Assembly (NCBI GenBank): GCA_046290465.1
Contig: JBKAGP010000001.1
Coordinates: 5,280,001 to 5,344,000, forward strand
Direction of reading: 5' to 3'
Origin: Planctomycetota bacterium
Lineage (GTDB): Bacteria; Planctomycetota; UBA1135; UBA2386
DNA: 64,000 bases
Positions 27,117 to 37,250 of the stretch are shown here, piece after piece. The notes below the pieces were generated by a model. That model worked only from the letters and a program-made list of their open reading frames with translations. It ran no database searches and had not been told where the DNA came from. Position 1 is the first letter of the stretch. Each line of letters opens with the position of its first letter. The translations under genes and the position numbers were made by a program.

Positions 27117-27213
27117 AGTTTGGGGCGAGCAGGATAGGGGGCGGTCCGCCGCATTCCAATTGCCGACCCGTCAGTGGCCGATCCTGCGTATGGTCGTTGC
27201 CCCGCTTCTCGTC

Positions 27214-29691
27214 ATGCGCGCTCCCGTTCCGTCGTCTCGCCTGCCGATCCTGTTGTCCGTCCTGCTGGCTACCGGATGCGGCGGTGGCGGCGGAGGTTCC
27301 GCGCCGCCGCCGGTCGATCCCGGGCCGCAGCCGAAGCCGACGATCGAGCCGCAGCAGTGGGGACCGCTGCCGCCAGGGCCGCGCGGACCCGGCGAGATCG
27401 TCGGCGGAGCGACGATGCCGGCCATCGAAGTCGCGAATTCCGGTGTGGAAAGAACGGGCACCTGGCGCGCTTCGGTGCCGTTCGCGTGGGGGCAGGTCAG
27501 CACGCTCGACGGTCTCGGCGTTACGGGGCAGCAGACGGCCTGGCACGTGCTGCAGCGGTGGCCGGACCAGTCGATCCGGGTCGCACAGGCGCAGTGGACG
27601 CAGACGTTGCCGGCATCGAGCGTGGCCACGGTGACGATCGACCACGCGACCACGATGGTTGGGCCGTTCGTGCCGCACCCGGTGTTCGCTGGTGGGTTGC
27701 CGGAGTTGGGCAGCCGGGTCGTCGACCGCTTCGGGATCGCCTACCACGCCGAGATCGCCGGTGCTGGCGAGGTGTTGCAGCAGAGTCCGCTGGTGCGCGT
27801 GCGTCGCTGGCGCACGCACCATCGCACCGCGCCGGCCGTCGGCATCGATCGCGACTTCCTGTCGTCGACGTTCTACGTCACCGAACTGCATGACGAGCCG
27901 GTGGTGCTGGTCGACTGGCTGCTCGGCAACGACTACCTCGGCGAGGACCAGCCGAACGGCAGCTCCGATCCCGATCTCTATCCGCTCGGCGACGTCGACG
28001 TCGAGGCGGCCTCGTTCCGCTTCCGTGGCGCCGACCTCGGGCTCGCGTATCGCGGCGCCGAGCACGGCGTCGGCCCGGCGAGCAGCGACCCCGACGGCTT
28101 CGTCTCGCGCCGAGTCATGAGCGCGACCTGGCTGGCCGACGGGCAGACGCGGCGCTACCGCTTCCTGCTCTATCGCGACGATCCTGCGGCGACGACGCCG
28201 CAGCTGCAGCAGGCGCGCGCGGCCGCCGAGGCGCGGGTGGCGACGCCGGTGCGCACGCTCGCGACGCACCAGAGCTGGCGCGACACGCATGCGCTCGGGT
28301 TGCTCGGAGGGCCGGGACAACCGCCGAGCGACGCCGCGCAGCGTGCGGCCGTGGCCTGGAGCGACTGGTCGTCGGCGGCGCACTTCGGCACCTGGGGTTC
28401 GCGCGGCGATCCGCTGGTCACCGGGCAGACCGGTACGCCGCGCAACCACCCGCTGTCGCCGGAGCTGGCGCACGCGGTGCAGTCGCGCGACCTGCGTATG
28501 CTGACGGTGCTCGAGCAGAAGGCGTGGATCCAGGCGGCGCGGCCGTACCACCTGTTCGGCCTGAGCGTGCACCAGCTCGGCGGCGTGCTGCTGTGGAGCG
28601 GGGTGCCGGGCCCGCAGGACCTGTCGCCCGAGTCGTTCGGTCGGCGGCGGTTGCGCGAGCAGGGGCTCTACGACGACTACCGGCAACACGCCAACGGCGC
28701 CGACCGGGCGCACGGGTTCGAGCCGTTCGACGTCGAGCACTGGTCGACGGACCTGTTGTTCGACTACTGGACCGTCAGCGGCGACGAATGGGCGCGCGAG
28801 GAGCTCCGGCAGCTCGGCGAGAGCCTGCGCGGCGTGCTGCGGCTCAACGGCTTCTACACCAGCGATGCGTTGGCGGCGCGCGCCGAGGGCTGGTGCATGC
28901 AGTCGTTCGTGCACGCGTTCCTCGCGACCGGCGACCTGCGCTTTCGCGACGCTGCGCTCGACCGCGCGCACGGGGTCGTCGATCGCGACCGCGTCGCCGA
29001 CGGCGCCTACCGGGCCCTGTTCGTCAGCGGCACCGATCCGCGCACCAACTGGCCGGGCCCGCACCGCTTCTACATGCCGTGGCAGCACGGCGCGGTGCTG
29101 TTCGGCTACCTCGCCGCATGGAAGTTCTTCGGTGATCCGCTGCTGCTGACGATCTGCGACGACGTCACCTACGGGGTCGCGCACGGCTGGGTGCAGAACG
29201 TCGGTCACCCGCAGTTCGGCTTCGTCGTCGACGGGCTGCGCTACTACGTGCCGGTCGGCTACCAGGGCCAGGCCGTCGCGCCCTCGGTGTTCGACGCCAG
29301 CCACGAGATCTCGTTCGGCGACGACCCGCTCGGCGGCGCCCACTCGCTGCTCGCCACCGGCCTGCTGATGCTGTCGCAGACCTCCGCCGACCCGCAGCGC
29401 CGCCTCGTCGCGCAACAGTACGGCCAGCTGCTGCTCCCGACCCTCGACGACGACGCGCGCTGGAACAAGTGGTTCTACTGCACACCCCCACCCTGGAACC
29501 CCTTGCCCCAAGAGGCGCAACATGAACCCGGTTCCGTATGCGGCCCAAACACCGCATACGGAACCGGGTTCATGTTGCGCCTTCTTGGGGCTAGATGGTG
29601 TTCTCGACGGGGGTGGGGGAACGGCGCGGCAGCGGCAGGAGCATTGGCACGCGGCGTTGGTAGGAGGCGTAGTCGGGGCCGTGTGCGCTGA
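27214..29691 (+). CDS. Large lipoprotein, possibly PcRGLX/YetA-like (RIFT barrel plus alpha/alpha toroid); C-terminus reads through a palindromic element
   Basis: Lipobox LATGC plus poly-Gly; ASVPFAWG..LQRWPDQSIR; DYWTVSGD, FLATGD, MPWQHG. Confidence 0.6.
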   Translation: MRAPVPSSRLPILLSVLLATGCGGGGGGSAPPPVDPGPQPKPTIEPQQWGPLPPGPRGPGEIVGGATMPAIEVANSGVERTGTWRASVPFAWGQVSTLDGLGVTGQQTAWHVLQRWPDQSIRVAQAQWTQTLPASSVATVTIDHATTMVGPFVPHPVFAGGLPELGSRVVDRFGIAYHAEIAGAGEVLQQSPLVRVRRWRTHHRTAPAVGIDRDFLSSTFYVTELHDEPVVLVDWLLGNDYLGEDQPNGSSDPDLYPLGDVDVEAASFRFRGADLGLAYRGAEHGVGPASSDPDGFVSRRVMSATWLADGQTRRYRFLLYRDDPAATTPQLQQARAAAEARVATPVRTLATHQSWRDTHALGLLGGPGQPPSDAAQRAAVAWSDWSSAAHFGTWGSRGDPLVTGQTGTPRNHPLSPELAHAVQSRDLRMLTVLEQKAWIQAARPYHLFGLSVHQLGGVLLWSGVPGPQDLSPESFGRRRLREQGLYDDYRQHANGADRAHGFEPFDVEHWSTDLLFDYWTVSGDEWAREELRQLGESLRGVLRLNGFYTSDALAARAEGWCMQSFVHAFLATGDLRFRDAALDRAHGVVDRDRVADGAYRALFVSGTDPRTNWPGPHRFYMPWQHGAVLFGYLAAWKFFGDPLLLTICDDVTYGVAHGWVQNVGHPQFGFVVDGLRYYVPVGYQGQAVAPSVFDASHEISFGDDPLGGAHSLLATGLLMLSQTSADPQRRLVAQQYGQLLLPTLDDDARWNKWFYCTPPPWNPLPQEAQHEPGSVCGPNTAYGTGFMLRLLGARWCSRRGWGNGAAAAGALARGVGRRRSRGRVR
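29505..29591. repeat. REP-like long inverted repeat (31-bp perfect stem, 8-nt loop, plus 8-bp outer extension)
   Basis: 29513-29543 aggcgcaacatgaacccggttccgtatgcgg is the exact reverse complement of 29552-29582. Confidence 0.9.
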
Positions 29692-30343
29692 GCAGGTCGC
29701 GCTCCTCGATCTGCAGGGCGATCAGGATGTAGACGGTGTAGGTGGCGGCGAACACCAGGCCGCCGACGGTCATCGTCGGCACCGACCAGAACGACAGTAG
29801 CATGCCGAACATCAGCGGGTGGCGCATGTAGCGGTAGAAGCCCTTCTCGGCGAAGCGCGGCGGCTCGAACGCGCGGCCGCGGAAGGCGGCGATGGTCTGC
29901 TTGACCCCGAACAGTTCGAAGTGGTCGATCAGGAACGTCGACAGCACGGCGATCAGCCAGCCGAGCCCGAACACCGACCACGCGACGGTCGCGAGCACGC
30001 CGTCGAGCTGCCAGACGACGTCCGGCAGCGGCCGCCATTGCCAGTAGAGCAAGGCCAGCACGGCGACGGTCGCCAGCACGAACGTGCTGCGCTCGATCGC
30101 CGGCGGCACCAGCGTGCGCAGCCACCGCTTGAACGGCTGGCGGGCCATGACGCCGTGCTGCACGCCGAACAGCGTGATCAGCCCGACGTTGATCAGCACG
30201 CTGGTCGCGAGCCCGCTCTGCGGACCGCCCGCGGCGACCGTGGTCGGGACCAACAGGTTCGCGAGGAACGCGATCAGGTAGACGAACGAGGCGTGGAAGC
30301 CGAGGTAGGCGAACAGGCCGTAGCCGAGGATGAAGAAGCGCAT
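29591..30343 (-). CDS. mddA: Methanethiol S-methyltransferase MddA (ICMT/PEMT family)
   Basis: QHGVMARQPFKRW; IERSTFVL; YWQWRPL; STFLIDHFELFG; YRYMRHPLM; PTMT; EERDL. Confidence 0.85.
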   Translation of the reverse strand: MRFFILGYGLFAYLGFHASFVYLIAFLANLLVPTTVAAGGPQSGLATSVLINVGLITLFGVQHGVMARQPFKRWLRTLVPPAIERSTFVLATVAVLALLYWQWRPLPDVVWQLDGVLATVAWSVFGLGWLIAVLSTFLIDHFELFGVKQTIAAFRGRAFEPPRFAEKGFYRYMRHPLMFGMLLSFWSVPTMTVGGLVFAATYTVYILIALQIEERDLLSAHGPDYASYQRRVPMLLPLPRRSPTPVENTI

Positions 30344-30375
30344 TGGAGTCCTGGAAGGAAAGGTGTTTCCTCCCA

Positions 30376-30404
30376 AGGCGCAGGACCGGCCCGGCGCCGG
30401 CCAG
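30376..30404 (-). promoter_or_regulatory. Putative ECF promoter CTGGCCGG-N14-TGCGCCT upstream of mddA
   Basis: Identical bipartite motif and spacing at 34018-34046 and 36469-36497. Confidence 0.7.
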
Positions 30405-30410
30405 ACTTCG

Positions 30411-30929
30411 TCAGTCGCCGGCCAGACGGCGGTAGAGCCACGCCCGCGCGAACGCCCACTCGCGGCGAACGGTGCGCTCGGACAACGTCATCGCGTCGGC
30501 GACCGCGGCCTCGTCGAGGCCGGCGAAGAACCGCAGCCGCACCACTTCGGCGGCGCGCTGGTTGATGTTCTGCAGCTCGGCGATCGCCTCGTCGATCGCC
30601 ATCACCTCGGTGACGTCCGCGGTCTGCGCGACCTCGGCGAGGTCGAGCGACAGCTTCTTCAGGTCGGGGCCGCCGCGCTTCTTGGCGCCGCGGCGCCGCG
30701 CGTGGTCGATCAGGATGCGCCGCATCGACTCGGCGGCCATCGAGTAGAACCGTGCCGGGTCGCCGCGCACGCCCTCGAGGCGGTCGCGCATCGACAGCCA
30801 CGCCTCGTTGACCAGCGCGGTCGCCTGCAGCGTGTGCCCGTCGCGTTCGCCGGCCATCTGCTTGCGCGCCAGCGCGCGCAGCTTGTCGTGGATGGCCGTC
30901 AGCTGGATGTCGTCGGTCGGTTCGGTCAC
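30411..30929 (-). CDS. ECF sigma factor, TIGR02999 (Planctomycete/kinase-associated) type
   Basis: GHTLQATALVNEAWL; MRRILIDHARRR; AEVVRLRFFAGL; SERTVRREWAFARAWL; GTGA overlap with the kinase. Confidence 0.92.
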   Translation of the reverse strand: MTEPTDDIQLTAIHDKLRALARKQMAGERDGHTLQATALVNEAWLSMRDRLEGVRGDPARFYSMAAESMRRILIDHARRRGAKKRGGPDLKKLSLDLAEVAQTADVTEVMAIDEAIAELQNINQRAAEVVRLRFFAGLDEAAVADAMTLSERTVRREWAFARAWLYRRLAGD

Positions 30930-33900
30930 CGTTGCATCGCCTGCAGTTCGTGCTGCCATCGTCGTGCCTCGTCGTCGAGTTGCAGTCGTCGCGCCATGTC
31001 GCGCGCGGCCTCGACCAGCCCGCGCCGATACGCGGCGCTGTACGGGCGCCGCGACGCGAAGTCCCGTGCGGCATCGGCGAGCCGGTCGTAGTGTTCGCGG
31101 CGGGGTTCGTCGCCCGCCGCACAGCGCGCGGCGATGGCCTGCGCCATGCAGCCGATCCACGAGCCCCGGTGCGCTTCGGGCAGCCGCGCGAAGCCCTCGT
31201 CGGCGCAGCGCGCGGCGCCCTCGAGGTCGCCCTGGTCGAACTGCAGCATCGCCTGCGTGACGCGCGTCTCGCACCAGCCGATGGTCCGGTCCTGCACCTT
31301 CGAGAACACCGACAGCGCCTCGTCGAGCAGCTTCGCGGCCTCGTCGTCGCGGCCGAGCATGCGCAGCACGACGGCGCGGTCCTTGAGCGTCACGCCGAGG
31401 TAGGGGTGCGGTTCGGAGTAGGCGCGACGCAGCAGTCGTTCGGACCAGGCCAGCATCTCGTCGGCGGTCTCGGCGTCGCCGCGCGCGGCGACGATCATCG
31501 CCAGGATCGACGTGCCGACCCCGAGCTGCGGATGGCCCTTGGGCAAGGTTCGCTGGCGCATCGCCATCACCCGGCGCATGGTCGCGTCCGCCTGCGGCAG
31601 GCGACCGGTCAGCTCGAACAGGCGGGCCTGGTTCTGCAGGATCATCGCCGTCGTCGGGTGGTCGCTCGGCAGCAGCTGCTGCAGCTTCTCGATCGCCGCG
31701 GCGTAGCCGGCCTCGGCCTCCTCGTAGCGCTTCAGCCGCATCAGGGCCAACGCATGGTTGGCGCGCGTGATCGCCGGGTTGACGCCGACGCGCTGGTCCG
31801 CCTCGATCGCGCGGCGGTAGAGCTTCTCCGCGGTTTCGAAGTCGCCGCGCGCCTCGCTGATGCCGGCGAGGTTGTTGATGCTGCTGATGGTGCGCTGGTC
31901 GCGTTCGCCGACGAACTCGCGCCGCTGCTCGAGCGCCTCGCGGTGGGCCGCCTCGGCATCGTCGTTGCGCCCGCGCCGCCAGTGGATGTCGCCGAGCCGC
32001 GCCAGCGCGTTGGCGACCCGCAGGTGGCGCGCGCCGTACTTGAGGCGCAGGCCCTCGATCAGTTCGCGCTGCAGCCGCTCGGCCTCGTCGAGCTGGCTGC
32101 GTTCGATCTGGATCAGGACCCTGGTCTCGAGCGCCGAGAGCAGCGCGTCCTCGGTCTTCTGGTCGCCCTGCAGCAGCGCCGTCGCCCGTTCGACGTGCTC
32201 CAGCGCCTCGTCGTAGCGACCCAGGTGGCGCGCGCAGTCGGCGAGCAACGCGTGGTCGCCGCCGCAGGTTGCGGCATCCGCACCGAGCGCGTCGCCGTGG
32301 ATCTGCAGCGCCCGCAGGGCGGTCTTGCGCGCACCTTCGTGGTCGCCGCGATCGTGCTGCAGCCACGCCCATGCGCGCAGGCTGTCGGCGACCAGGCTGT
32401 GCTGCCCGCCGAGTTCCTGTTCGCGCAGCTCGAGGGCGCGCTGCAGGTGCACCTCGGCCTTGTCCAGCAAACCGAGGTTGCGATACGCGGTGCCCACCGT
32501 CGTGCGGATCGCCGCGGCGACGGTCGCATCGGTGTCGAGGGCCGGCGCGTCGCGGTCGAACTCGTCGAGCAGCTGCCGAACGGTCATGTCCGGCCGGCGC
32601 GGCGCGTGCGGATCGGACGCGACCAGCATGCTCTGCATCAGGCCGGCGATCACGCCGGCACGTTCGGCCTGCAGCGCGACCTCGGTCTTCTCGGCGCGGA
32701 CCTGGTCGAGCGCCGCCGCCGTGTCCCGCTCGGACGCGACCGCGCGGTCGAGCGCCAGCGACGTGGTCACGACGCCGGCGAGCAGCGCCACGAACACGAC
32801 GGCGACCGCCGAGGCGAGGCCCCGGTGGCGGCGCAGGAACTTCCAGGCGCGATAGCCGGCGGTCGGCGGCCCGGCGTCGACCGGCTCGTCGTCGAGGTAG
32901 CGGCGCACGTCCTCGGCGAGCGCCCGCGCCGTCGGATAGCGCCGCACGCGCTGCTTGTCGAGCGCGCGCATCGCGATCCAGTCGAGCTCGCCGCGGATCA
33001 CCCGGCCGAGGCGGGCCGGATCGGTGCGCCGGCTCTGCGCGACGACGCCGAGCCGTTCGCCGAGCGAACTGACCCGCGTGCTCGGCTTGGGCGGGTCGAC
33101 CTCGCGCACGTGGCGCAACATCTCGTCGTAGCCGTGCTGCAGCAGTTCTTGCGCGTCGAACGGCTTGGTGCCGGTCAGCAGCTCGTAGAGCACCACGCCG
33201 AGGCTGTAGACGTCGGCCCGCGTGTCGACGTCGAGGCCGCTCATCTCGGCCTGCTCGGGCGCCATGTATTCGGGCGTGCCGATCATCTGCCGGAACTGCG
33301 TGAACAGCGTGCGCTGGGTCAGCTCCTGCGTGGTCGCCTTGGCGACGCCGAAGTCGATCACCTTCGGAACCGGCACCCCGTCGTGCATCGTCACCAGGAT
33401 GTTCGACGGCTTCAGGTCCCGGTGGATGATGCCCTTCTGGTGGGCGTGCTGCACGGCGAGGCAGATCGACTGGAACAGCTCCAGTCGCGACGGCGTGTCG
33501 AGGTTGGCCTTGTCGCAGTACTCGGTGACCGGCATGCCGCGCACCAGCTCCATGACGAAGTAGGGCCGGCCCGAGCCGGTCGCGCCGCCGTCGAGCACCT
33601 TGGCGATGTTCGGGTGGTCCATCAGCGCCAGCGCCTGCCGCTCCGCCTCGAAGCGCGCGACGACCTGGCGGGTGTCCATGCCGAGCTTGATGATCTTCAC
33701 CGCGACGCGGCGACGGATCGGCTCCTGTTGCTCGGCCATCCAGACGACGCCGAAGCCGCCTTCGCCGATGCGTTCGAGCAGTCGGTAGCGATCGATCTGG
33801 TCGCCCTCCTGCTCGCCCGGCAGCTGCGGTGGCTCGGCCAGGAACTCGTCGGCTTCGTCGAACGCCGCGAGCAGCGAGCGCACCTCGTCGCGCACCGCGT

Positions 33901-34006
33901 GGTCGTCGCAGGCCTCCTCGAGGAAGCCCGTGCGTTCGTCGCGGTCGAGATCGAGGGCGCGCTGGAACAGGTCCTGCACCGTGTCGTTGCGGTCGGGGGA
34001 GACCAT
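30926..34006 (-). CDS. Membrane Ser/Thr protein kinase with extracytoplasmic TPR repeats
   Basis: GEGGFG; VAVK; HRDLKPSN; DFG; GTPEYMAPE; TM helix; TPR array. Confidence 0.95.
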   Translation of the reverse strand: MVSPDRNDTVQDLFQRALDLDRDERTGFLEEACDDHAVRDEVRSLLAAFDEADEFLAEPPQLPGEQEGDQIDRYRLLERIGEGGFGVVWMAEQQEPIRRRVAVKIIKLGMDTRQVVARFEAERQALALMDHPNIAKVLDGGATGSGRPYFVMELVRGMPVTEYCDKANLDTPSRLELFQSICLAVQHAHQKGIIHRDLKPSNILVTMHDGVPVPKVIDFGVAKATTQELTQRTLFTQFRQMIGTPEYMAPEQAEMSGLDVDTRADVYSLGVVLYELLTGTKPFDAQELLQHGYDEMLRHVREVDPPKPSTRVSSLGERLGVVAQSRRTDPARLGRVIRGELDWIAMRALDKQRVRRYPTARALAEDVRRYLDDEPVDAGPPTAGYRAWKFLRRHRGLASAVAVVFVALLAGVVTTSLALDRAVASERDTAAALDQVRAEKTEVALQAERAGVIAGLMQSMLVASDPHAPRRPDMTVRQLLDEFDRDAPALDTDATVAAAIRTTVGTAYRNLGLLDKAEVHLQRALELREQELGGQHSLVADSLRAWAWLQHDRGDHEGARKTALRALQIHGDALGADAATCGGDHALLADCARHLGRYDEALEHVERATALLQGDQKTEDALLSALETRVLIQIERSQLDEAERLQRELIEGLRLKYGARHLRVANALARLGDIHWRRGRNDDAEAAHREALEQRREFVGERDQRTISSINNLAGISEARGDFETAEKLYRRAIEADQRVGVNPAITRANHALALMRLKRYEEAEAGYAAAIEKLQQLLPSDHPTTAMILQNQARLFELTGRLPQADATMRRVMAMRQRTLPKGHPQLGVGTSILAMIVAARGDAETADEMLAWSERLLRRAYSEPHPYLGVTLKDRAVVLRMLGRDDEAAKLLDEALSVFSKVQDRTIGWCETRVTQAMLQFDQGDLEGAARCADEGFARLPEAHRGSWIGCMAQAIAARCAAGDEPRREHYDRLADAARDFASRRPYSAAYRRGLVEAARDMARRLQLDDEARRWQHELQAMQR

Positions 34007-34017
34007 GGCAGCACGAT

Positions 34018-34046
34018 AGGCGCAGGAACGCGCCGGCGCCGGCCAG
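34018..34046 (-). promoter_or_regulatory. Putative ECF promoter CTGGCCGG-N14-TGCGCCT upstream of the kinase-ECF operon
   Basis: Same motif as at 30376 and 36469; 11 nt before ATG 34006. Confidence 0.7.
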
Positions 34047-34086
34047 GCTTTCGCCCGGCCAGCGAGATTGCCGCAAGTGGTTGCGG

Positions 34087-36405
34087 CTACTTGCCGAACG
34101 GCGTGCGCAGGCCGTGCGTGGCGAGAATTCCGGCGGGGTTGGCGCCGGTTTCGAGCACGAACCACTGCGTGAACAGCTCGAACGGGCCCATCGCGCTCGG
34201 GATCGCCAGCGTGATCTCGGCGTCGCCGACGTTGTCGGCATACATCAGCACGGTGCCGAGCAGGTTCGGCGCCGTCGGGTCGACCGACAGCACGCAGCCG
34301 GTCATGCCGAGGGAGTCGAGCGGCGCGTTCGCCGGCGCCAGCGACGCGCCGAAGATCACGAAGCGACCCGGCAGGGCGGTGTCGACGCGGAACGTCTCCC
34401 ACTCGCTGCCGATGTGCTGCGTGCCCTGGTGGCTGACGTTCGCGTTGGCGCAGTTGCTGCCGAGCAGCGTCGGCGGCGTCAGCGCGACGTAGTTCTGCCA
34501 CGTGGCCCAGATCGGCTGGGTCGCGCTGCCGTTGTCGACGCCGAAGGCCAGCGCGAAGCGGTTGCTGACCGGGTCGTAGCAGATGCCGCCGTCCTCGGGC
34601 GTGGAGCCGGCGACCGCCCACGCGGTGTTCTGCTCCGAGACCATGCCGTCGTAGCCGAGCTTGCTCGCCTGGACGGTGCCGGCGCCGTAGTCGCTCGTCA
34701 GCACGCTCCAGTGCGAACCCGAGTCGAGGTCGAACGCGCAGTCGGCGACCTGCATCGTGAACAGCGGCGTGGTGGCGAGCACCTGCGCCGGGTGCGGCAG
34801 GGTGCCGTTCTGGGCGCTGTGCTCCCAGTCGAGGCGGCGCGCGACGACCTCGTCACCCTGGATGTTCAGCGGCTTGTTCGCGGTGTTGTCGCGGCGGGCG
34901 TAGCTGACCAGGTAGCGGCCGTCGGCGCCGGCGACCTTCGGGCTGAGCTCGTGCTCGCTGCCGGTCGCGATGCTGCGCACGTTGCCGAGGTTGCCGAACG
35001 TCGCCTGGACCCGCTGGGCCAGCACGTTCCAGGTGCTCGACGAGGCGTTGCCGTGCAGCTGCCAGGCGACGACCCACGAGTATTCGATGCCGCCCTCGGC
35101 GGCCTGGTTGACCGACGGGTGCTCCTTGTCGGTGACGACGCTGCTGTTGCCGATGACGAACGTGCTGCCGTCGACCGCGCCGTTGAGGCCGCTCGAGACG
35201 TCGACGCGGAAGCCGACGATCTCGCTGTCCGCGACGTTGGCGAAGAACGGGTTCGACTCACGCTGGTAGACGATCAGCACGTGGTTGCCGATCGACATCG
35301 CGCGGCTGCCGCCGACGTCCGGCCGCCACTGGTGCGTCGCCGACGCGTACGGTGCCGAGCCGTAGTTGGTGTTGAACGACGCGCTGCTCTTGGCGTGCGT
35401 GTGCCAGCGCACGCGGCGCGTGTTGCTGACCGGGAACTCGCGGGTGAACGCGGCCACGACCTTGCCGGCGCCGCTGCCGCCGGTGCCGGCGAGCTGGCCC
35501 TCGGTCGCGCTCCAGGTGCTCTGCAGGTCGCTGAACACGACCGCGTTGGGGCCGGACAGGCTGGCCTGGTTGCGGGTAACGATCAGGTCGCGGTCGGTCG
35601 CCGACGAAGCGCGGGAGAACACCAGCCAGACGTTGCTGCTGCTCTGCTCGGCATCGACGAACAGGTCGACGTGCTCGACCTCGTTGCCGGTGTCGAGCAG
35701 CGAGTTGCCGAGCAGCGGGTCGACGACCAGCGGGAAGGCGGCGCGGTCGACGTCGGCGGCGCCGAGGCGCAGGCGCACGGTGCCGTCGCGCAGCGAGGTC
35801 GTCATCGGGAAGCGGCGGCCGTAGGCATCGATTGCGATCGCGACGCCGTAGCGCACGACCTCGCGGCCGTTGGCGTCGACGAAGGCGAGCGGGGCGTGCG
35901 CGGCGCCGCGGCGTGCCGAGGTGGTGGTGCCGGTGACGGCCCCGTCGATGACGAGGTCCCCGGACGCGTTCGGCCGCTGCGAGAACACGAACGTCTGCTC
36001 GAGGCCGTCGGTGCGCACGTCGTAGGCCTCGACGACGGTGCCGAAGTGGTACTCGTAGCGGAAGTCGCCGACCTGGTGCGGCTCGGGCAGCTGCTGCACG
36101 AGCTCCCGTTCGCCGACGCGCACGGAGGTCGTGCGCCAGTGCAGCGTCTCGTTGTGCGGGGCGGACGCGCCGAGCACCGGCACGAACGTCATGCCGTCGT
36201 GGAACGACACCTTGTAGTCGGGGCCCGCGGCCCAGATGCCGTAGTCGCCGCCGACGGGGTCGGGGTCGGCGCCGTGGATCGGGACCCGCAGGTCGGTGGC
36301 GACCGCCTGCGCGTTCGTGGTGGCGTCGCCGTTGGTCGGCGACTGCGCCGCCAGCGTGGCGGCTGCAGCGAGGATCGAGAAGAACGGAATCGAGCGGATG
36401 TTCAT
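34087..36405 (-). CDS. Large secreted protein with N-terminal (Y/F)PLVVDP-type domain and lineage-typical C-terminal domain
   Basis: Signal peptide ending AAQ; DGLEQTFVF; FPLVVDPLL; C-terminal LGMTGCVLSVDP..QWFVL..NPAGILATHG. Confidence 0.75.
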   Translation of the reverse strand: MNIRSIPFFSILAAAATLAAQSPTNGDATTNAQAVATDLRVPIHGADPDPVGGDYGIWAAGPDYKVSFHDGMTFVPVLGASAPHNETLHWRTTSVRVGERELVQQLPEPHQVGDFRYEYHFGTVVEAYDVRTDGLEQTFVFSQRPNASGDLVIDGAVTGTTTSARRGAAHAPLAFVDANGREVVRYGVAIAIDAYGRRFPMTTSLRDGTVRLRLGAADVDRAAFPLVVDPLLGNSLLDTGNEVEHVDLFVDAEQSSSNVWLVFSRASSATDRDLIVTRNQASLSGPNAVVFSDLQSTWSATEGQLAGTGGSGAGKVVAAFTREFPVSNTRRVRWHTHAKSSASFNTNYGSAPYASATHQWRPDVGGSRAMSIGNHVLIVYQRESNPFFANVADSEIVGFRVDVSSGLNGAVDGSTFVIGNSSVVTDKEHPSVNQAAEGGIEYSWVVAWQLHGNASSSTWNVLAQRVQATFGNLGNVRSIATGSEHELSPKVAGADGRYLVSYARRDNTANKPLNIQGDEVVARRLDWEHSAQNGTLPHPAQVLATTPLFTMQVADCAFDLDSGSHWSVLTSDYGAGTVQASKLGYDGMVSEQNTAWAVAGSTPEDGGICYDPVSNRFALAFGVDNGSATQPIWATWQNYVALTPPTLLGSNCANANVSHQGTQHIGSEWETFRVDTALPGRFVIFGASLAPANAPLDSLGMTGCVLSVDPTAPNLLGTVLMYADNVGDAEITLAIPSAMGPFELFTQWFVLETGANPAGILATHGLRTPFGK

Positions 36406-37250
36406 CGGACTGGCTCCTGAGTCGGTGGTGAGCGCGACGACGTCGACGTGACTTCGCCGCGCCGGCACAGGCGCACGGTTGGCCGACGACCGGCCAGGAG
36501 TTTTCGCGGCCAGGGCGATGCAGACGGGGTTGGCGGGCCTCGTCGCCGCCTTGCGCCAAGGGCCCCGATTCCGATTCCGTCCGTCCCGTTTCGTTGGCGT
36601 CCTGCGCCGGCAAGCAGCCAGCGGCTCGATCGCCGCGAGCAACGCGGCGGCTCGCAGGTAGCTTCGCTAGGAGCGCGTCCATGTAGTGGACGCGCTGCCA
36701 ACCGTGATCGCGGAAGCGGCGTGTACGCGTGCGGACGGGGCTTTGCCCTCTGGCAGCGTCCGGTCGGGTCCGGCTGCCACTCCGGCGGCTCGGTGCCCTC
36801 GAGGTGCGCGCGCATGCAGCCGTCGTAGAGGAACCGCCAACCGTGGTCCTTGCTGGCGAGTTCGTCCTCGGTGACGCGGCCGAACATGCGCTCGGTGAAG
36901 CGCAGCGTGGTGCCGGTCTCGGTCGCCTCGAGCTCGTACTTGCCGACCCACGTCAGCGGGCTGCCGTACGAGCCGGTCAACTCGATCAGCTTGTCCTTCT
37001 GCACGTGGATGACCGTGCCCCAGATCATGCCGTTGCCGCCGCCCGCGTCTTCGAACATCTGGCCGCCAGGGCGGGCGTCGAGCGTGATCTTCTGCGGGCC
37101 GGGGCCGGAGCACATGTAGAACATGCCGGGCCACCAGCGTGCGAGGTCGTCGGTCAGCGCCTGCCAGACCTGCTGCGGCGTGGCCTTCAGTTCGATCTCG
37201 AGCACGTAGTCGGCGACGGTGGCCGGAGAGAGCGGGTGGGTCTCGGTCAT
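36402..37250 (-). CDS. SRPBCC (AHSA1-like) domain protein with a suspicious low-complexity C-terminal read-through
   Basis: ATPQQVWQALT..WW; LDARPGG; GTTLRFTE; HGWRFL; domain ends near 36760 but the frame stays open to 36402. Confidence 0.75.
   Translation of the reverse strand: MTETHPLSPATVADYVLEIELKATPQQVWQALTDDLARWWPGMFYMCSGPGPQKITLDARPGGQMFEDAGGGNGMIWGTVIHVQKDKLIELTGSYGSPLTWVGKYELEATETGTTLRFTERMFGRVTEDELASKDHGWRFLYDGCMRAHLEGTEPPEWQPDPTGRCQRAKPRPHAYTPLPRSRLAARPLHGRAPSEATCEPPRCSRRSSRWLLAGAGRQRNGTDGIGIGALGARRRRGPPTPSASPWPRKLLAGRRPTVRLCRRGEVTSTSSRSPPTQEPVR
36469..36497 (-). promoter_or_regulatory. Putative ECF promoter CTGGCCGG-N14-TGCGCCT upstream of the secreted-protein gene
   Basis: Same motif as at 30376 and 34018; 63 nt before ATG 36405. 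Confidence 0.7.
36672..36696. terminator. Hairpin (10-bp stem, 5-nt loop), possible terminator after the SRPBCC gene
   Basis: agcgcgtcca-tgtag-tggacgcgct; no clear U-tract. Confidence 0.3.

Follow-up and report, generated by a model that had tools for sequence, protein, structure and literature searches.

The closest described counterparts of the system reported here are kinase-linked extracytoplasmic function (ECF) sigma factors. EcfK of Xanthomonas citri (PMC13147305) is a Sigma70_ECF-type sigma factor encoded beside PknS, a one-pass Hanks-type kinase with tetratricopeptide repeats (TPRs); its targets are type VI secretion genes used against amoebae, and the accessible text of that paper gave no promoter consensus for EcfK. 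EcfP of Vibrio parahaemolyticus, partner of the kinase PknT, lacks the acidic DAED motif, carries Thr instead, has no anti-sigma gene nearby and governs a polymyxin-resistance regulon (reviewed in PMC8999054). Group ECF43 is marked by a Pfam Sigma70_ECF domain, a one-helix kinase with outer TPRs, and Ser or Thr in place of DAED; it is described as proteobacterial only, with the kinase at +1 and a predicted promoter of GTC (-35) and CAG (-10) (PMC7826278). The mdd genes, whose products form dimethylsulfide (DMS), are induced by H2S, methanethiol (MeSH) or H2O2, and the accessible text of PMC11445057 and PMC12904073 names no regulator or promoter for them; that of PMC5607357 names no regulator either. 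Here we describe a locus in a 64,000-nucleotide stretch of a Planctomycetota genome (contig JBKAGP010000001.1, positions 5,280,001 to 5,344,000; hereafter the window), in which mddA, a kinase-sigma factor operon and a gene for a predicted exported protein are each preceded by a two-part box, TGGC(C/A)G-N17-CGC (Table 1). With a probability of roughly 0.8, this box is the -35/-10 promoter of the neighbouring ECF43-like sigma factor, which would be activated by kinase phosphorylation and would drive mddA, its own operon and the exported protein gene.

The window shares with EcfK/PknS a Sigma70_ECF sigma factor beside a one-pass TPR Hanks kinase and a Q-A-T-x sequence in region sigma2.2, whereas its predicted targets are mddA and the exported protein, its phospho-site is predicted while phosphorylation of EcfK has been demonstrated, and its kinase gene lies upstream of the sigma gene. 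As in EcfP/PknT, the acidic DAED is absent, Thr stands in its place and no anti-sigma gene is nearby, although the host is a planctomycete and not a proteobacterium. Of the ECF43 marks, the locus has the PF07638/TIGR02999 domain, Ser/Thr for DAED and a co-encoded one-helix TPR kinase (topology from domain order); it departs from the kinase position at +1, the restriction to Proteobacteria and the GTC/CAG promoter. Because the closest relatives of the sigma factor are in Planctomycetota records, we call it ECF43-like. As regards the kinase-linked planctomycete groups ECF59 and ECF217, the planctomycete sigma model TIGR02984 gave it 23 against a cut-off of 184. Known mdd control concerns the same enzyme family, and its stress or detoxification role fits (PMC11445057, PMC12904073). 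The literature covered contained no paper linking mddA to an ECF sigma factor or a kinase; Wiegand 2020, Iyer 2020, Li 2023 and the ECF Hub logos lie outside that coverage, so the promoter or the control of mddA may be known. What the comparison supports well is a new target for a switch of known type, the box being very probably an ECF43-like promoter.

An earlier reading made from the sequence alone (the sequence-only reading) had reported three exact copies of CTGGCCGG-N14-TGCGCCT on the minus strand, 32, 11 and 63 nt before the start codons of mddA, the kinase gene and the gene for a 772-aa protein. Copies and distances were found as described, and its gene identities (MddA, ECF sigma factor, Ser/Thr kinase with TPRs) agree with profile scores and domain motifs. 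The window contains six matches at up to two mismatches, a number reached in none of 100 shuffles (mean 0.74). No further exact N14 copy exists in the 6,594,045-base genome (6.59 Mb), where 0.29 would be expected from the element counts; the same elements occur three times at spacer 11 and once at spacer 12 (genome-wide, counted only). With a matrix built from 42 sites of other loci, the three window sites rank first, second and third in the genome on both strands (Box 2, 26.3; Box 1, 22.6; Box 3, 22.0). The box has two elements at fixed spacing, on the sense strand and upstream of start codons, as expected of an ECF promoter.

Two statements of that reading held in part. The box does have two parts, but the core conserved across genomes is the shorter TGGC(C/A)G-N17-CGC, with varying outer bases. 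The third spacer was said to argue against simple duplication; this fails for copies 1 and 2, which may be duplicates since 11 of their 14 spacer bases are identical. As the motif had, in addition, been picked after the fact, support was sought outside this genome, and it is the comparison across genomes that carries the case. In the window's genome no convincing further regulon member was found: the next intergenic scores (18.6 and 16.5) belong to TGGCGG sites beside other sigma factor paralogues. An excess of intergenic TGGCAG-N17-CGC sites (116) was rejected as promoters, being mostly a dispersed repeat. The locus is covered piecemeal by DNA contigs from four runs; among the 40 of 112 differences listed, the one in a box falls in a spacer (30395), and these contigs were not used as evidence.

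A search for MddA in a sample of the class matched 73 of 301 genomes in 82 places, of which the 66 best were examined and the 16 weakest left out; 65 loci were counted after dropping the truncated L158. In 44 of the 65, TGGC(A/C)G-N17-CGC was present on the sense strand no more than 260 nt before mddA. Other spacers between 12 and 22 gave 0 to 7 of the 65 loci, the antisense strand gave 5, and of 12079 windows placed at random in these loci 168 (1.4%) held a box. Elements were conserved and spacers diverged across dozens of genomes and through rearrangements. In L022 (genome G015) the exported protein gene is inverted, yet each of the three units has a box before it; of the four copies in L026, one stands ahead of a divergent Kelch-repeat gene; in both, the orthologue of the exported protein has a box. 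Boxed alleles stand on several branches of the MddA tree, and the sites of L168 and L199 may be chance occurrences, because their MddA proteins group with unboxed alleles.

Control sets gave few boxes before mddA: 4 of 30 loci phylum-wide in Planctomycetota (two of the 30 being same-order repeats, both negative), 2 of 80 metagenomic loci and none of 22 loci sampled in the phylum to which an acidobacterial record belongs. As it is largely absent there, the box is no intrinsic feature of mddA. In five loci (L289, L294, L343, L345 and L347) mddA is preceded by a short palindrome-like TTAGTC...GAC(T/C)AA, by eye the site of a one-component repressor.

An ECF43-like gene lies in 25 of the 65 fetched stretches, 23 of which have the box and 20 a kinase gene. 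Twenty-two of the 25 sigma factors fall into two clades (FastTree support 0.966 and 0.914 in a first tree, 0.947 and 0.938 in a second). In clade A, which holds the window's sigma factor, TGGCCG precedes mddA in 8 of 9 loci, the exception being L172, where mddA sits behind the exported protein gene and TGGCCG sites lie upstream in the locus. In clade B, TGGCAG precedes mddA in 12 of 13 loci, with no cross-over between the clades. Residue 155, in the recognition helix, is Arg in all 13 clade A sequences and Ala, Tyr, Met or Phe in clade B. Base 5 of the box is C in 18 of 20 intergenic sites near Arg155 sigma factors and A in 10 of 13 near Ala155, counted at loci with one sigma gene and from sites that are not independent.

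The fifth base of the element recognised by Escherichia coli sigmaE is the C at -31, and R171 forms a bond with the G that faces it (PMC1540707). Residue 155 was equated with R171 through an alignment to SigL and the residue numbers of that paper, sigmaE itself not being in the alignment; SigL was reached by a profile search of solved structures with the sigma factor, where a single-sequence search gave chance matches only. The pairing of Arg155 with TGGCCG, and of other residues with TGGCAG, is what the sigmaE structure would predict. The window's genome has 13 ECF43-like paralogues, each near a kinase gene, and only that of the window has Arg155. Two Glu155 paralogues have TGGCGG-N17-CGC nearby and two Leu155 paralogues TGGCAC-N17-CGC, which are candidate promoters for those four. 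These sites are at G000:C1 1455080, 3153958, 302976 and 1051132-1051287.

Among 43 loci outside the profile building, a clade A or B sigma factor was detected in the genome for 19 of 24 boxed loci and 4 of 19 unboxed ones, with thresholds set by eye at E-value gaps and in incomplete genomes. TGGCAG loci had such a sigma factor in 16 of 20 cases (clade B in 15) and TGGCCG loci in 3 of 4 (clade A in 3). The earlier proposal that the box is the target of the neighbouring ECF sigma factor is thus supported at the level of sequence, the box following both the sigma clade and the DNA-reading residue.

The 87 intergenic sites with a downstream gene precede mddA (58), sigma (16) and kinase (5) genes, the exported protein family (4), Kelch-repeat genes (2) and AurF-like genes (2), in a sample centred on mddA and sigma genes in which some loci were fetched twice. 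Around mddA, only mddA, sigma and kinase genes form a recurring core. That the sigma factor would target itself, the exported protein and mddA, as the sequence-only reading had it, agrees with the retention of the box before all three units even where these are rearranged; mddA is the constant predicted target and the exported protein a variable one. AurF-like diiron genes stand directly behind the box in L031 (4804-5712) and L254 (2244-3212), one per box variant.

Region sigma2.2 of the window's sigma factor reads Q35-A-T37-A and has no acidic core-binding motif; all 49 aligned relatives keep the Thr at position 37. The Thr in HTLQATAL earlier named as candidate phospho-site is this T37. It corresponds to T51 of EcfK by motif text (EcfK reads QATE, the group consensus QTTA; PMC13147305), EcfK itself not being in the alignment. 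In the other 12 paralogues of this genome the kinase gene is downstream (10) or divergent (2), while that of the window is upstream. At L027 (7908-8001) the sigma gene is immediately preceded by a box and what is left of a kinase leader, as if the kinase had been deleted.

By analogy with EcfP/PknT and EcfK/PknS, a leaderless housekeeping promoter would supply low basal amounts of kinase and inactive sigma factor. A ligand outside the cell would act on the TPRs and activate the kinase, which would phosphorylate T37 and perhaps also S94 in the linker, restoring the negative charge for binding core RNA polymerase. The holoenzyme would then start about 9 nt after CGC and transcribe mddA, its own operon and the exported protein gene, and MddA, judged by its family, would methylate MeSH or H2S to DMS. 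Our guess at the signal is envelope or thiol stress. More speculatively, and at odds well short of even, a cue from outside, be it a grazer, a neighbour or damage to the envelope, might act through a receptor kinase and a phosphorylated sigma factor to switch on DMS production, and ECF43-like switches might have captured mddA several times, in clades A and B among others. In L372 and L381 (acidobacteria) and in L205 (another planctomycete), mddA is divergent from an ECF43-like sigma-kinase pair that belongs to neither of these clades and lacks this box; such unrelated pairs, in 2 of the 22 acidobacterial loci and one other planctomycete, hint at repeated recruitment.

The protein families fit these roles. 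MddA scores 296.1 bits to NF045656 (equivalog cut-off 270), is encoded by a single gene copy in the genome and is a predicted integral membrane protein that keeps the invariant residues of its family; 44 residues, including R174-H175-P176 and E213-E214, are common to at least 90% of 123 aligned homologues. Family membership suggests methylation of MeSH or H2S to DMS dependent on S-adenosylmethionine. The sigma factor scores 167.5 bits to TIGR02999 (cut-off 126.15) and 139.9 to PF07638 (Sigma70_ECF; 21.1), and its gene has a GTG start overlapping the kinase stop codon. The kinase has an intact Pkinase domain (GEGGFG, VAVK, HRDLKPSN, DFG and APE motifs), TPRs and one hydrophobic segment (401-419), its membrane topology following from domain order.

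Table 1. Features of the mddA locus (positions in the window)
Feature	Position	Strand	Prediction	Remarks
mddA	29591..30343	-	250 aa, predicted membrane methanethiol/H2S S-methyltransferase	NF045656 match, five hydrophobic segments
Box 1, TGGCCG-N17-CGC	30378..30403	-	Predicted ECF promoter of mddA	30376-30404 in the sequence-only reading
ECF43-like sigma factor (TIGR02999/PF07638)	30411..30929	-	172 aa, T37 predicted phospho-site	
Sigma factor R155			Predicted reader of base 5 of the -35 box	Register from SigL alignment and PMC1540707
Hanks-type Ser/Thr kinase	30926..34006	-	1026 aa: kinase domain, membrane segment 401-419, C-terminal TPRs predicted outward	
TATCGT	34013..34018	-	Likely housekeeping -10 box of a leaderless transcript	Overlaps Box 2; 6 nt before kinase ATG
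Box 2	34020..34045	-	Predicted autoregulatory promoter of the kinase-sigma operon	34018-34046 in the sequence-only reading
Weaker fourth copy	34036-34061	-		Overlaps Box 2; score 12.3 against 22-26 for the main three
Predicted exported protein	34087..36405	-	772 aa, variable regulon member	Signal peptide judged by eye
Box 3	36471..36496	-	Predicted ECF promoter of the exported protein gene	36469-36497 in the sequence-only reading

A search for methanethiol oxidase (PF05694) gave no match in the window's genome. The exported protein has no Pfam or NCBIfam match and belongs to a Planctomycetota family with 11 matches in its own genome, itself included; its nearest clusters are planctomycete hypothetical proteins, with FG-GAP and DUF7948 clusters farther off. 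At 29506-29589, directly after the mddA stop, lies an inverted repeat with 38-bp arms, which belongs to a second family of dispersed repeats (152 BLAST pieces); a convergent plus-strand open reading frame (27190-29691) runs through it and overlaps the end of mddA. At 36665-36748 there is one copy of a dispersed palindromic repeat of about 83 nt, often tandem and with about 100 intergenic copies in the genome; an AHSA1-like open reading frame (37250 downward) has no stop before it and stays open through to 36402.

Several observations weigh against the box being the promoter of a kinase-activated sigma factor that controls mddA. The short pattern was written after the upstream sequences had been seen, the genomes of the class sample are related to each other, and 21 of the 65 mddA genes have no box. 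The pattern differs from the GTC/CAG predicted for ECF43 (PMC7826278). The match of residue and base comes from two clades and four paralogues, hence from few independent contrasts: Lys155 sigma factors have no consistent base 5 nearby, G158 (Thr155) has TGGCGG, and G669 combines TGGCCG with a sigma factor of clade B only. Five of the 24 boxed loci outside the profile building lacked a detected clade A or B sigma factor, with the thresholds and incomplete genomes described above. Five of the 25 sigma-bearing stretches contained no kinase gene as fetched, and EcfK keeps its function with T51A (PMC13147305), so the switch may involve more than T37. In the kinase box copy the final T is also the first base of TATCGT, whose distance from the ATG is the commonest TANNNT spacing in the genome (exactly 6 nt, 106 of 2416 genes); TANNNT also follows the kinase box copy in L022, L025 and L026. 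The kinase-sigma operon therefore likely also has a housekeeping promoter, which would make autoregulation a boost and not the only input. On the minus strand no terminator-like site was found, so that read-through can feed mddA. A scan for the sigma-70 consensus found nothing. Leaderless-type TANNNT at 6-10 nt before ATG is common genome-wide and, by eye, stands before most ECF43-like operons.

Even with the box as a sigma factor promoter, the MddA homologue might act on another thiol or a membrane component, in an envelope response apart from DMS. We consider this possible though rather unlikely: ECF regulons and the other box targets (exported, Kelch-repeat and AurF-like diiron proteins) point to the envelope, the MddA score is only 26 bits over its cut-off, no methionine gamma-lyase in the genome exceeds the cut-off (best 434.6 against 549.7) and no MddA relative was found by sequence among solved structures; yet the equivalog cut-off is passed, the invariant residues are kept, MddA also accepts H2S as a substrate (PMC11445057) and MeSH can be supplied by the surroundings. 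That the sigma factor reads the box without the neighbouring kinase, being constitutive or activated by another one, is clearly improbable. A kinase accompanies it in 20 of 25 stretches, the kinase stop overlaps the sigma start in the window, T37 is invariant and the acidic motif is absent; these stand against the five stretches without kinase, the box directly before sigma in L027 and 80 kinase-like matches in the genome.

The odds fall further, to a small residue, for the box as an operator of another DNA-binding protein, the promoter of another sigma factor or an RNA hairpin. TGGC can pair with GCCA over 4 bp as an inverted repeat (A is the last base at 25 of 43 sites), and the kinase copy overlaps the housekeeping -10 box as an activator site might; but the box is strand-specific (44 sense against 5 antisense), has a single spacing and follows the sigma recognition helix at base 5. 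The hairpin was rejected, since the sites gave an empty consensus fold (mean z -0.16) and matched nothing in Rfam. Local duplication or chance in DNA of 70% GC, suggested by the spacers that copies 1 and 2 share and by 106 occurrences of the looser TGGCCG-N15-TGCGC in the genome, is scarcely credible: it is contradicted by the 44 of 65 loci and the matrix ranks, and by conserved elements with diverging spacers in dozens of genomes and rearranged loci. For the box as promoter of the neighbouring, kinase-activated sigma factor, what is seen directly is the box, its fixed spacing, strand, position and conservation, and the way it varies together with sigma clade and residue 155.

For mddA these results name candidates for the sensor, the sigma factor and the promoter, in a class with an mddA-like match in 73 of 301 sampled genomes. 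For the large TIGR02999 family, which has 13 paralogues in this genome alone, they add a specific promoter and the prediction that one residue sets specificity. The size of any DMS flux is outside what these data address. If the proposed control is correct, mddA would gain a dedicated outside-in signalling pathway, DMS would be an output that signalling at the cell surface regulates, and more than a by-product of detoxification, and residue 155 would be a readable code that pairs paralogous sigma factors with their promoters.

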